The notes under the pieces: generated by a model | Databases searched by the model: none | What the model was told of the DNA's origin: nothing | What the model saw: the letters and a program-made list of their open reading frames with translations, nothing else | Program-made: the position numbers and the translations under genes | NCBI GenBank assembly: GCA_036262455.1 | Contig: DATAIW010000252.1 | Location: forward strand, 1 to 41,809 | Direction of reading: 5' to 3' | Length of the DNA stretch: 41,809 bases | Source: Candidatus Limnocylindrales bacterium | Lineage (GTDB): Bacteria; Chloroflexota; Limnocylindria; Limnocylindrales; CSP1-4 | Shown: piece after piece, positions 10,980 through 13,959 of the stretch | Numbering within the stretch: the first letter of the stretch is position 1 | Layout of the letters: each line of letters opens with the position of its first letter

Positions 10980-11927
10980 TCACTCCTGGACGATGTGGGT
11001 CCCGGCGGTGCCGCGGACCGCCTCGCGGAGGTGCGGCGGGTCGGTGATGACGGCTTCGCGGCCGCCGCGTTCGAGGTACCAGATGCAGGCCTCGATCTTG
11101 GGCGCCATGCTGCCGGCCGCGAAGTGGGTGCCCTCGGCGAGGTACTGCTTCGCCTCGGCCAGGGTCATCCTGTCCAGCCAGCGCTGCTCGGGCTTTCCGA
11201 AGTCGAGCGCGACCCGGTCCACCGCGGTGGCGATCACGAACAGGTCGGCCCCAAGCTCGCTCGCCAGGAGCGAGCTGGCGAAGTCCTTGTCGATCACGGC
11301 GGGCACGCCATGGAGGTTGCCCTGGGCATCGGTGGCGACCGGGATCCCGCCACCGCCGACCGTGATCACGATGAAGTCGGCTGCGGCGAGGGTCCGGACG
11401 GCTGGCAGCTCGACGATCCGCATGGGCTTCGGCGACGCGACGACGACGCGCTTGCCCCGTCCCGCGTCCTCGACGATCGTCGCGCCCTCGGCCTGGCGCC
11501 GGGCCGCCGTCTCGTCGTCGAGGAACGACCCGATCGGCTTCGAGGGCGCCGCGAAGGCCGGGTCGGCCAGGTCGACCTGCACCTGCGTCACCACGGTCAC
11601 GGCCTGCCGATCGAGCCCGAGCCGGGCGAAATCATGGCCGAGCGACTGCTGGAGCTCATAGCCGATCGCGCCCTGCGTGTCGGCGCCGCACACGTCGAGC
11701 GGCACCTCGTGGAGCTCGTGTGCGGCCAGCTCGGAACGGCGGAGGATGAACCCGACCTGCGGCCCGTTGCCGTGGCCGATGACCATGCGCCAGCCGTCCT
11801 CGACGAGCGCGGCCAGGTGATGGCTCGTCTCTTCAAGCGCGGCCATCTGATCGGGCACCGACTGGTGCTGCTTGTCCTTGATCAGCGCGTTGCCGCCGAT
11901 CGCCACGACCATGAGCGGGCTCGTCAT
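10980..11927 (-). CDS. arcC: Carbamate kinase
   Basis: VVAIGGNAL and the hallmark GHGNGPQVG motif. I chose the ATG at 11927 (MTSPLMVVAIGGNAL) because GGGGAGA lies 6 nt upstream. The track ORF begins at a GTG at 11945. Confidence 0.9.
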   Translation of the reverse strand: MTSPLMVVAIGGNALIKDKQHQSVPDQMAALEETSHHLAALVEDGWRMVIGHGNGPQVGFILRRSELAAHELHEVPLDVCGADTQGAIGYELQQSLGHDFARLGLDRQAVTVVTQVQVDLADPAFAAPSKPIGSFLDDETAARRQAEGATIVEDAGRGKRVVVASPKPMRIVELPAVRTLAAADFIVITVGGGGIPVATDAQGNLHGVPAVIDKDFASSLLASELGADLFVIATAVDRVALDFGKPEQRWLDRMTLAEAKQYLAEGTHFAAGSMAPKIEACIWYLERGGREAVITDPPHLREAVRGTAGTHIVQE

Positions 11928-11994
11928 CGCCATTCTCCCCGGCACGTCGGCCGGTCTGCTGCTGATGGTCCCTCGCCCTGGGCGGTTACCCGCC

Positions 11995-12972
11995 TCAGTG
12001 CATCGTGAGCGCCATCACGGCCTTCTGGACATGGAGCCGGTTCTCGGCTTCGTCGTACACGACCGAGTGCGGACCGTCGATGACCGCGTCGGTCACCTCG
12101 ACGTTCCGGTCGGCCGGGAGGGGATGCATGAAGATGGAGTCGTCCGCCGCGAGCGCCATTCGCCGTTCGTCGGTGATCCAGTCGGTGTACTGCGCGCCGA
12201 TCGTCGCGCCCTCCTCGTCGTTCTTGGCGACGAGGAGCGGACCCCAGCTCTTGGCGTAGATGACATCGGAGCCCGCGAAGCCGGCATCGAAGTCATCCAT
12301 CAGCTCGAGGCTGCCGCCCGACAGCCGGGCGTTCTCGGCGGCCTGGTCGACGTACTCCGGGACGAGTTTGTACTCGGGCGGATGGACCAGCCGGACGTTC
12401 ATGCCGAACCGGGTCGCGGCCAGGACGAGGTCGATCGGGACGCTCATCGGCTTCTGGTAGCTGGCCGCGTACGCCCAGCTGACGGTCAGCGTCCGGCCGC
12501 GGAGCTCGCCCTTCTTCTCCCGCATCGTCAGCAGGTCGGCGAGGATCTGGTGTGGATGGAAGAGGTCGCACTGCATGTTGAGGACGGGGACGCGACTGGC
12601 CGCGGCCACGTCGCGCATGTACTTGTTGCCGACGCCCCAGTCGACGTTTCGGATGGCAAGCCCGTCGTTGTAGCGACCGAGGATCTCGCCGATCTCGCGC
12701 GCCGTGTCACCGTGCGAGATCTGGGTCGTCCGGGATTCGATGAACTGGGCGTGCCCGCCAAGCTGTGCCATCCCCGCCTCGAACGACGCGCGGGTGCGCG
12801 TGCTCGAGAAGAAGAACAGCATCGCGAGGACCTTGTCCTCGAGGTACTTGTGCGGCCGCCCCAGGGCGCGGTCCAGCTTCAGGCGGGCCGCCACCTCGAG
12901 GATTGTCTCGACCTCCTCGGTCTTCCATTCCTGGAGCGAGATGAGGTCTCGGCCACGAAGGCCCGTCTGCAT
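11995..12972 (-). CDS. Carbamoyltransferase of the ornithine-carbamoyltransferase superfamily with a non-canonical second-substrate site (YgeW-role candidate)
   Basis: The carbamoyl-phosphate motifs SSTRTR and HPHQ are present. It reads DVIYAKSWG where OTCases have D-x-x-x-SMG, and HPLPA where they have HCLP. A GGAAGGAA RBS lies upstream. Confidence 0.85.
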   Translation of the reverse strand: MQTGLRGRDLISLQEWKTEEVETILEVAARLKLDRALGRPHKYLEDKVLAMLFFFSSTRTRASFEAGMAQLGGHAQFIESRTTQISHGDTAREIGEILGRYNDGLAIRNVDWGVGNKYMRDVAAASRVPVLNMQCDLFHPHQILADLLTMREKKGELRGRTLTVSWAYAASYQKPMSVPIDLVLAATRFGMNVRLVHPPEYKLVPEYVDQAAENARLSGGSLELMDDFDAGFAGSDVIYAKSWGPLLVAKNDEEGATIGAQYTDWITDERRMALAADDSIFMHPLPADRNVEVTDAVIDGPHSVVYDEAENRLHVQKAVMALTMH

Positions 12973-13005
12973 GGCCGTGTTCCTTCCGATTCGGGGTTCC
13001 GGGGG

Positions 13006-13959
13006 TTACTCGGCCGCGCCGAGGATGAGGGCGAGCATGCCCATCTTCAGCACGACGCCGTTGAAGGCTTCCGCCCAGTAGCGCTGGTGGCGGGTGGCGT
13101 CCACGTCGGCCAGCAGCTCGTCCATCCGCGGCAGCGAGTGGAGGATGATCGAGCTGCGCTTGGCCTTGTCCTTGAGGAGCTCACGGGTCACGCAGTACTC
13201 GGCCGGCGTGAGGCCGACCTTGTCACCGCGCTCCTCGCGCGAGGCGGTGTAGTCGGCCTGGACGACCGGCTCCATGTAGATGACATCCGCCTCGCCGATG
13301 ACGTCACGGACGTCCGAGGCCTCCTCGTAGTCCACGTTGAGCGCGTCGATCTCGGCCTTGAACTCGGGCAGGAGGCTCATGTCCGGGGGGCCGACGACGA
13401 TCGCCTTGGCGTCGAACTGCGACAGCGCGTACAGGATCGAATGCATCGTCCGCATCCGCATGTCACCGACCAGGACCCAGGTGAGCCCGTCGAGCGTGCC
13501 CTTCTCGAGGAACGTCGTGTACAGGTCGGTAAGGACCTGGGTCGGGTGCTCGCCCCAGCCGTCGCCGCAGTTGATGACCGGCACGGACGACCACTTGGCC
13601 GCCTCGGCCGGTGCGCCCTGCTGGAAATGCCGGATCGCGATGACGTCCGCGTAGTACTCCAGCATGTGGAACGTGTCCTTGATCGACTCCTGATAGAAGT
13701 CGCCGGCGCGCGTCATCTTCGAGTCGGAGAAGCCGAGGACCTGACCACCGAGACGGTGCATCGCGGCCTCGTGCGACAGGCGCGTCCGCGTCGACGGCTG
13801 GTAGAAAGCCGTCAGCATCGTCTTGTTCTTGAGCAGGTCGGTGTTCCGGCGGTCACGCGCGAATGGGCGGAGGTCATCCGCGACCTGGAAGACGCGGAAG
13901 AACTCGTCCCTGCTGAAGTCCTTGAGGGACAGGATGTCGCGGCCGAGGAAACTTCTCAT
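13006..13959 (-). CDS. Aspartate-carbamoyltransferase-like carbamoyltransferase paralog with an altered acceptor pocket
   Basis: PSTRTR, IRH, EHPTQ and HSLPR align with the ATCase catalytic-chain motifs. The E. coli YMTRVQKER segment reads YMEPVVQADY here, and the Lys84-loop lysines are absent. There is a 4-bp ATGA overlap with the upstream gene. Confidence 0.85.
   Translation of the reverse strand: MRSFLGRDILSLKDFSRDEFFRVFQVADDLRPFARDRRNTDLLKNKTMLTAFYQPSTRTRLSHEAAMHRLGGQVLGFSDSKMTRAGDFYQESIKDTFHMLEYYADVIAIRHFQQGAPAEAAKWSSVPVINCGDGWGEHPTQVLTDLYTTFLEKGTLDGLTWVLVGDMRMRTMHSILYALSQFDAKAIVVGPPDMSLLPEFKAEIDALNVDYEEASDVRDVIGEADVIYMEPVVQADYTASREERGDKVGLTPAEYCVTRELLKDKAKRSSIILHSLPRMDELLADVDATRHQRYWAEAFNGVVLKMGMLALILGAAE

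Follow-up and report, generated by a model that had tools for sequence, protein, structure and literature searches.

Why should one operon carry genes for two different carbamoyltransferases and a single carbamate kinase? The question arose from a 41,809-nt stretch of DNA from a Candidatus Limnocylindrales bacterium (contig DATAIW010000252.1, G+C 70%), referred to below as the window. On its minus strand, consecutive open reading frames encode a carbamoyltransferase that resembles aspartate carbamoyltransferase (ATCase) (TC1, 13006–13959, 317 aa), a second carbamoyltransferase (TC2, 11995–12972, 325 aa) and a carbamate kinase of the YqeA/ArcC type (10980–11945, 321 aa from the first GTG). Both carbamoyltransferases match Pfam OTCace_N and OTCace, and their genes lie 33 bp apart, as a preliminary description made from the sequence alone had reported, with GGAAGGA ahead of the TC2 ATG. 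The kinase carries the motif GHGNGPQVG, is 47% identical to Escherichia coli YqeA, matches Pfam AA_kinase and NF009007 (381.2 bits, cut-off 266) and falls slightly under the cut-off of TIGR00746 (352.9 against 358.25 bits). Its start is ambiguous (GTG 11945 or ATG 11927), the ATG being the likelier one given a GGGGAG 7 nt upstream of it. Two genes for fold-type-II pyridoxal phosphate (PLP) enzymes precede TC1 on the same strand, the distantly CysK-like PLPB (15350–16849, Pfam PALP), which is the first gene of the operon, and the distantly ThrC-like PLPA (13956–15353, Pfam PALP 120 bits). ATGA stop/start overlaps occur at both the PLPB–PLPA and the PLPA–TC1 junctions, and the PLPA ATG is likely at 15353.

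A reductive route of urate breakdown, described in 2025, offers a setting for such an operon. It runs from urate through 2,8-dioxopurine, its dihydro form, ureidomethylhydantoin, 2,3-diureidopropionate (DUPA) and a mono-ureido acid to 2,3-diaminopropionate and pyruvate. DUPA has two ureido groups (PMC12990295). E. coli obtains ATP from one of them by means of YgeW and YqeA (bioRxiv 10.1101/2025.04.24.650524; PMC12507026; PMC12990295), the other is hydrolysed by YgeY, and YgeX deaminates the diaminopropionate. For the operon in the window we favour, with moderate confidence, a model in which TC2 and TC1 phosphorolyse both ureido groups of DUPA, so that two ATP would be made per urate.

Acceptor sites of TC1 and TC2

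We compared TC1 with Pyrococcus abyssi ATCase in a HMMER alignment and with E. coli PyrB in a MAFFT alignment, taking the roles of transcarbamylase residues from the table of Shi et al. 2015 (PMC4581275). The carbamoyl-phosphate site is complete. Residues S52, T53, R54, T55, R105, H134, Q137 and L267 in ATCase numbering correspond to S56, T57, R58, T59, R110, H138, Q141 and L276 of TC1, the motifs read PSTRTR and HPTQ, and the alpha-carboxylate ligand R167 is retained as R170. The other half of the active site is rebuilt. YMEPVVQADY of TC1 aligns with YMTRVQKERL of E. coli (R229→P231, Q231→V233, E233→A235, R234→D236), so that the ATCase-defining RxQxxER reads PVVQAD; the 80s loop is TRAGDFYQE in place of TSLGKKGE (K83→D87, K84→F88/Y89), and HPLP is HSLP. 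R229, Q231, K84 and RxQxxER bind the beta-carboxylate of aspartate in ATCase (PMC4581275). The preliminary description had held that the carbamoyl-phosphate motifs are kept in both enzymes and that Arg229 and the lysines of the Lys84 loop are gone from the ATCase-like one, and the alignments bore out each of these points. Among 201 sequences of the TC1 family, GDMRMRTMHS occurs in 200, and HSLPR and EPVVQ[AP]DY occur in all; Glu230, Asp87, Phe/Tyr and Trp135 are newly conserved. Since the deviating motifs are invariant or nearly so in these 201 sequences and in 168 sequences of the TC2 family, they do not reflect decay. The residue pattern of TC1 fits an alpha-ureido acid whose side chain would no longer be anionic.

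TC1 clears the aspartate carbamoyltransferase model TIGR00670 by a margin of 8.5 bits (245.5 against a cut-off of 236.95), which is why public records call it aspartate carbamoyltransferase. An identity as ordinary PyrB was rejected, with R229, Q231, K84 and RxQxxER all missing and model NF002032 failed (212.4 bits, cut-off 263). A neighbour-joining tree, of the kind the preliminary description had proposed as a check, placed the TC1 family (100% bootstrap) among the pseudo-ATCases, apart from proteins with true ATCase motifs. The family is isolated: a search of 1.84 billion cluster representatives returned full-length representatives 74–77% identical to TC1, and the next full-length proteins were at most 50% identical, most of them also without RxQ and with the loop TR[AS]GD[FY]Y in common. 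An AlphaFold2 model of TC1 reached a pLDDT of 65.3, with a poorly modelled N-terminal domain (the alignment was shallow, all sequences being at least 80% identical to the query), and Foldseek recovered the expected ATCase fold from it.

To judge from its motifs, TC1 is a pseudo-ATCase, a term introduced by Barba et al. 2013 (PMC4016543). It has STRT, HPTQ and H[ST]LP (as HSLP) and lacks RxQ, and its context, with a YgeW-type gene, a carbamate kinase gene and an XdhD-like gene nearby, fits as well; the pseudo-ATCase of Nocardioides JS614 (subgroup 2) likewise adjoins a ygeW homologue and xdh genes (PMC4016543). Experiments on the characterised member Rxyl_2847, the ureidoglycine carbamoyltransferase (UGTCase) of Rubrobacter xylanophilus, demonstrated phosphorolysis of allantoate, a diureido acid, and a carbamate kinase gene adjoins the gene of this enzyme (PMC4016543). 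TC1 resembles Rxyl_2847 in belonging to the ATCase branch, in its intact STRT and HPTQ, altered HxLP and missing R229 and Q231, and in lying beside a carbamate kinase gene in a cluster for purine degradation. It differs in that its family is 74–95% identical internally and at most 63% identical to anything else seen, and in that its context is the reductive pathway rather than the oxidative uricase/allantoinase pathway. Unlike the published pseudo-ATCases, whose subgroups carry GX[SC], VXP or AIA at positions 229–231, TC1 has PVV there, and it has lost the lysine of the 80s loop.

TC2 carries the carbamoyl-phosphate motifs SSTRTR and HPHQ. At the positions of DxxxSMG and HCLPA in ornithine carbamoyltransferases (OTCases) it reads YAKSWG and HPLPAD. 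The preliminary description had read AKSWG and HPLPA as deviations within an OTCase; both are present, but in the clade of YgeW and N-acetylornithine carbamoyltransferase (AOTCase) AKSWG is the usual motif rather than an SMG loop that has mutated. Xanthomonas campestris AOTCase has YAKSWG (with K252), and YPKSWA of YgeW resembles it. Furthermore, SWAYAASYQKPMSVP of TC2 aligns with TWAYSPSYGKPLSVP of YgeW, the proline-rich loop of YgeW and AOTCase, and NVDWGVGNKY aligns with DDMYLGAGNAY of YgeW as an extended 120s loop; these two loops are the sequence signature of knotted transcarbamylases (PMC4581275). Five of the six proposed second-substrate residues of YgeW are kept in TC2 (Q160→Q134, S200→S171, K203→K174, K270→K241 and L331→L285). 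The departures are D124→V110 and C330→P284, the latter turning HCLP into HPLP; the copies from Gaiellales (TC2') retain all the YgeW residues, including D124 and C330. TC2 is 34% identical to E. coli YgeW and lacks the additional helices that YgeW has at its N and C termini as well as its long two-helix 240s insertion (325 aa against 396 aa).

Every curated NCBIfam cut-off lies above the score of TC2, whether for YgeW (NF005538 185.9 bits, cut-off 453; TIGR03316 168.3, cut-off 500), AOTCase (NF003384 264.3, cut-off 288) or OTCase (NF001986 256.6, cut-off 306; TIGR00658 255, cut-off 280.85). We rejected an OTCase on residue grounds (N167→S177, D231→K241, S235→P245, M236→L246, C273→P284). The AOTCase of X. 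campestris (PDB 3kzc among others) is the best structural and HMM match of TC2 and has YAKSWG with K252 and the proline-rich loop in common with it; nevertheless, an AOTCase was rejected as well, with E92→G88, K302→E292, gaps at W77 and N185, and the long 80s loop missing. In the neighbour-joining tree TC2 joined YgeW (65% bootstrap), AOTCase was added at the next node (67%), and the OTCases stood separately. The AlphaFold2 model of TC2 (pLDDT 73.9, from a similarly shallow alignment, with a poor N-terminal domain) gave TM scores of 0.76 for AOTCase, 0.74 for YgeW and 0.73 for OTCase, values that do not discriminate the families. On its sequence, then, TC2 is a compact enzyme of the YgeW/AOTCase type rather than a deviant OTCase, in spite of public records that call it ornithine or N-acetylornithine carbamoyltransferase. 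Because AKSWG is normal in this clade, we propose that TC2 is the functional counterpart of E. coli YgeW and that TC1 is the extra enzyme. With the acceptor-site ligands indeed unconserved in proper alignments of both proteins, the earlier suggestion that neither is a biosynthetic ATCase or OTCase appears sound.

A reductive urate cluster and its relatives

Divergently from the carbamoyltransferase operon, on the plus strand, runs a set of genes predicted to act on urate. It comprises a selenium-dependent molybdenum hydroxylase of the XdhD or 2,8-dioxopurine dehydrogenase type (17096–19795; TIGR03311 967.5 bits, cut-off 830.45), an SsnA-like amidohydrolase (19773–20843), a YgfK-type Fe-S flavoprotein reductase (20743–24312; TIGR03315 850 bits, cut-off 835.3; 36% identical to E. 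coli YgfK) and an NCS2 nucleobase permease (24883–26298; Pfam Xan_ur_permease 308 bits; TIGR00801 367, cut-off 291.8). The SsnA-like protein, a short and divergent one with 31% identity to its E. coli counterpart over 19773–20840, scores 262 bits (NF005540, cut-off 444) and 246 bits on two SsnA models, below the cut-off of each. Its longest open reading frame (19626–20843) shares about 170 nt with the end of the XdhD-like gene, and the true start is therefore probably near 19773–19795. More E. coli-like SsnA proteins, about 40% identical, are encoded at the related loci of Gaiellales described below. YgfK would dearomatise 2,8-dioxopurine and SsnA would open the ring of the dihydro form, and the XdhD-like, SsnA-like and YgfK-type genes together mark a predicted 2,8-dioxopurine or reductive urate pathway in the window. 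The cluster supports the catabolic use, together with carbamate kinase, that the preliminary description had proposed for the two carbamoyltransferases, and the two ureido groups of DUPA agree with its suggestion that two such groups may be harvested.

Several genes of the E. coli pathway are missing. The tblastn searches with E. coli YgeX, YgeY and HyuA found no match in the window at E ≤ 1e-5, and a Pfam search of the window found no further amidohydrolase and no M20 peptidase. Genes of uricase, allantoinase or pyrimidine catabolism are likewise missing from the window. The 41.8-kb contig has neither pyr nor arg genes, and there are no pyr genes in the related loci, over about 10 kb per side. 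Compared with the E. coli cluster (Liu et al. bioRxiv 2025; Li et al. Life Metab 2025), the window shares a YgeW/AOTCase-clade enzyme and a kinase in the company of XdhD, SsnA and YgfK; it differs by the additional ATCase-branch carbamoyltransferase and the two unrelated PLP enzymes, and by the missing YgeY, YgeX and local HyuA.

A scan of one genome per GTDB species showed that a TC1 relative is encoded at at least 587 stretches, and the counts that follow rest on the best 80 of these, in which TC1 is 74–95% identical; 45 of them, with at least 9 kb on both sides, are called full loci. The 80 loci come from Chloroflexota (Limnocylindria), Gaiellales/Thermoleophilia and Acidimicrobiales, with a small number from other groups. 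Of the 45 full loci, 43, spread over several phyla, encode a second carbamoyltransferase, which lends weight to the idea that two groups are harvested. In 31 full loci it is TC2 (68–89% identical), directly downstream of TC1. In 12, mostly from Gaiellales, it is a more YgeW-like copy a few kilobases away (46–52% identical to TC2), with HCLPAD, YPKSWG and D124 retained, and in several loci (for example L028, L030 and L041) this copy directly precedes the kinase gene. The full loci also encode PLPB (41 of 45), PLPA (38), XdhD (38) and carbamate kinase (31). Among the 69 loci with enough upstream sequence, PLPA lies directly upstream of TC1 in 52 and PLPB is present in 63; XdhD homologues occur in 60 of the 80 loci, and the kinase gene directly follows TC1 in five. 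Two contigs of one metagenome-assembled genome (CAVZPD01), L034 and L038, carry near-identical PLPB-PLPA-TC1-TC2-kinase clusters, which represent either a duplication or an assembly or binning artefact.

YgeY was found in two of the 80 loci and YgeX gave at most one weak match. The preliminary description had suggested that the YgeY step is replaced; the window and 78 of the 80 loci do lack YgeY, in agreement with that suggestion, but the loss is wider, since YgeX and mostly HyuA are absent too. HyuA is present in nine loci, and the hydantoinase step is therefore likely to be part of the pathway of this lineage even where its gene is unlinked. The reductase beside XdhD and SsnA varies, being luciferase-like (F420-type) in 16 loci, YgfK in 14 and an Fe-S protein resembling dihydroorotate dehydrogenase and UacX in eight, in line with the variation that Li et al. 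(Life Metab 2025) describe.

The proteins closest to TC1 beyond its own family point to the nature of the acceptor. They have the signature of TC1, namely TRAGD[FY][FY]xE, GDGWGEHPTQ, GD[LM]RM-RTM, EPVVQPDY and HSLPR. One of them, P0476 of Actinoplanes (63% identical to TC1; TIGR00670 246.2 bits against the trusted cut-off of 236.95, a score like that of TC1), is encoded in a cluster with SbnA (365.7 bits, cut-off 349.95) and SbnB (385.8, cut-off 326.9), which are 2,3-diaminopropionate biosynthesis proteins according to the NCBIfam models TIGR03945 and TIGR03944. Another, P0394 of Streptomyces griseoflavus (46% identical), has a nonribosomal peptide synthetase (NRPS) gene on one side and, on the other, a gene for SbnA (378 bits) that overlaps it; SbnB (394 bits) is encoded close by. 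The stretches with these actinomycete relatives beside SbnA/SbnB and NRPS genes are L083 10001–11985 and 18552–19613, and L085 102–6094. A third relative belongs to an NRPS/DcsG-like cluster without SbnA or SbnB. Because the TC1-type signature stands beside SbnA and SbnB, it would most simply mark a pocket for diaminopropionate or a derivative, and such a pocket is relevant because diaminopropionate is the end product if both ureido groups of DUPA are removed. The same gene neighbourhoods suggest that the actinomycete relatives are an unrecognised ATCase-branch diaminopropionate carbamoyltransferase of natural-product biosynthesis. The known enzymes with this activity, the DPTCases VioL and ZmaU (PMC4581275), are OTCase-branch proteins with the motifs HDLP and (T/S)RWQTTG, whereas TC1, with HSLP and EPVVQ, is of the ATCase branch; the reaction proposed for TC1 would be the reverse of diaminopropionate carbamoylation.

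The two PLP enzymes are as distant from characterised proteins as their models indicate. The best NCBIfam match of PLPA is threonine synthase (72 bits, cut-off 303), and the protein has a Cys-rich N-terminal region of about 140 aa. PLPB scores 77 bits on the cysK model (cut-off 351); its best PDB sequence match is cysteine synthase (E 1e-18, residues 137–398), and it carries extensions of about 90–100 aa at both ends. A specific relationship of PLPA to the ThrC-like protein of the Actinoplanes cluster was rejected (27% identity, E 1e-8), as was one of PLPB to the SbnA of that cluster (no meaningful match). Because the synteny of the PLP pair is as conserved as that of TC1 while YgeX is absent, PLPA is a candidate replacement for YgeX, the diaminopropionate ammonia-lyase, and PLPA and PLPB may together be a new diaminopropionate-degrading pair.

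Proposed route and competing explanations

In the model that we favour, the XdhD-like enzyme, YgfK, SsnA and a hydantoinase encoded elsewhere would convert urate to DUPA. The YgeW-type TC2 and the pseudo-ATCase TC1 would phosphorolyse one ureido group each, TC1 acting on DUPA or on mono-carbamoyl-2,3-diaminopropionate, and the products would be two carbamoyl phosphates and 2,3-diaminopropionate. Carbamate kinase would use both carbamoyl phosphates to make ATP, TC1 taking the place of the hydrolase YgeY. PLPA and PLPB, translationally coupled to TC1, would convert diaminopropionate to pyruvate and ammonia, and its removal would pull forward the phosphorolyses, which are unfavourable in that their equilibria favour carbamoylation. 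The known and proposed systems would then form a series in ATP yield, from none in Clostridioides difficile (UacY and YgeY) through one in E. coli (YgeW and YgeY) to two in the TC1/TC2 variant. The arginine and agmatine deiminase pathways, with a catabolic OTCase or putrescine carbamoyltransferase and carbamate kinase, follow the same logic of ureido phosphorolysis to carbamoyl phosphate and on to ATP; they use one carbamoyltransferase on one ureido group, whereas for TC1 and TC2, which stem from two branches, we propose successive action on a single molecule.

Several observations weigh against this model. No HyuA hydantoinase is encoded in the window, and the formation of DUPA in the Limnocylindrales bacterium is assumed. 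The substrates are deduced solely from context and residue logic, and the ureido group assigned to each enzyme, the sequence of reactions, the gain of two ATP and the part played by the PLP enzymes are likewise proposals. The placement of TC2 with YgeW has a bootstrap value of only 65%, and the predicted structures, at pLDDT 65.3 for TC1 and 73.9 for TC2, are too poor for an inspection of the pockets. Carbamate kinase is missing within 10 kb in 14 of the 45 full loci. The full-length loci L064 and L077 have TC1 and the kinase with no second carbamoyltransferase within 10 kb, and L042 and L048 carry YgeY alongside TC1 and TC2; the replacement of YgeY is therefore not absolute. The presence of two PLP enzymes also leaves room for another end chemistry, for example beta-elimination of urea from albizziin. 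As for L042 (Candidatus Fervidifonticultor) and L048, their YgeY proteins are 40% and 55% identical to that of E. coli, both loci have the kinase and L042 also has HyuA, and they may be intermediates between clusters of the E. coli type and those of the two-carbamoyltransferase type.

Among the alternatives, the one that survives best, unlikely as we consider it, is that only TC2 takes part in urate breakdown and that TC1 uses another ureido compound, such as allantoate, N-carbamoyl-beta-alanine or a by-product of SsnA; the other ureido group of DUPA would then be lost through an unlinked hydrolase or as urea through a PLP enzyme. The sole characterised pseudo-ATCase does act on allantoate (PMC4016543), the permease of the window scores best on pyrimidine-type models (RutG 618 bits, under its cut-off), two PLP enzymes of unassigned function lie in the cluster, and two loci have YgeY alongside TC1. 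On the other hand, TC1 is the most constant member of the cluster, with PLPB and PLPA as linked neighbours and in most cases XdhD and SsnA as well, and no uricase, allantoinase or pyrimidine-catabolic gene accompanies it in the window. Moreover, TC1 lacks the equivalents of K106 and S102 that UGTCase keeps (PMC4581275), and its nearest relatives indicate an acceptor of the diaminopropionate type.

It is less probable again that TC1 and TC2 are redundant or alternative enzymes for one ureido group, serving for example D and L isomers or different conditions, with one carbamoyl phosphate gained per urate. TC1 and the kinase occur without TC2 in L064 and L077, and the literature is split over which ureido group YgeW attacks (PMC12990295), both of which would suit redundancy. 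Yet TC1 and TC2 belong to separate branches of the superfamily, their second-substrate sites differ entirely, a second carbamoyltransferase accompanies TC1 in nearly all full loci across phyla, and YgeY, which would be required for the other ureido group, is missing.

We regard as very improbable an anabolic TC1 that carbamoylates 2,3-diaminopropionate, the presumed activity of its relatives in Streptomyces and Actinoplanes, for detoxification or to make a ureido amino acid, with carbamoyl phosphate supplied by the kinase. The genes of the sister group do lie in biosynthetic clusters with NRPS and SbnA/SbnB, but the window has no NRPS or SbnA/SbnB genes, and TC1 is in constant synteny with catabolic XdhD and SsnA, transporters and a carbamate kinase of catabolic type. 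Finally, the publicly annotated identities, PyrB for TC1 and ArgF or AOTCase for TC2, can be all but set aside, for the narrow pass of TC1 on TIGR00670 and the public names aspartate, ornithine and N-acetylornithine carbamoyltransferase stand against the absence of the residues that define ATCase, OTCase and AOTCase, the scores of TC2 below all curated cut-offs and a context without pyr or arg genes.

Surroundings of the operon and biological meaning

Downstream of the kinase gene, on the same strand, lies a BMP/PnrA-type ABC transporter (5985–10872) with two permeases, a binding protein and an ATPase (Pfam Bmp, BPD_transp_2 and ABC_tran), which has homologues in about ten related loci. The string of same-strand genes ends with genes for a 793-aa transketolase-like protein and a class I/II aminotransferase (2296–5942), which recur in only about three related loci. 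A scan of positions 5500–17500 gave no promoter-like sites and five terminator-like sites, against 4.1 expected by chance, and an Rfam search of the whole window and of the divergent promoter region (16700–17250) found no RNA family. On the plus strand, the urate-reduction genes are followed at once by those of a [NiFe]-hydrogenase of the membrane-bound uptake type (26474–31103), with a small subunit bearing a twin-arginine translocation signal, a large subunit, cytochrome b and a HypA-like protein. This hydrogenase could supply electrons from H2 for urate reduction, as formate does in E. coli.

The pathway itself, the coupling of YgeW and YqeA, the pseudo-ATCases and the SsnA clusters of Chloroflexota and Actinomycetota are already published. 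Within the literature collection that we searched in full text, we found no account of a two-carbamoyltransferase variant without YgeY and YgeX, nor any of the TC1 family, of its connection with SbnA/SbnB or of the PLP pair. We regard as evenly balanced the joint proposition that this is the first purine-fermentation route in which both ureido groups are turned into ATP, that TC1 represents an unrecognised diaminopropionate carbamoyltransferase family of the ATCase branch and that the PLP pair replaces the ammonia-lyase.

The reductive urate pathway was worked out in 2025 in gut bacteria only, and the founding papers disagree on the ureido group taken by YgeW; this regiochemistry could be settled directly in a natural system that has two dedicated carbamoyltransferases. 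If our model is correct, the substrate-level ATP yield from urate would be doubled, and the pathway would reach very abundant uncultured soil lineages, Limnocylindria, Gaiellales and Acidimicrobiales, across the many stretches that encode a TC1 relative. The TC1 family is systematically misnamed aspartate carbamoyltransferase and TC2 is misnamed ornithine or acetylornithine carbamoyltransferase, and the occurrence of the TC1 pocket signature beside SbnA/SbnB in natural-product clusters points to new enzyme specificities. TC1-type enzymes would then be catabolic in soil Chloroflexota and Actinomycetota and biosynthetic, together with SbnA and SbnB, in the natural-product clusters of actinomycetes.

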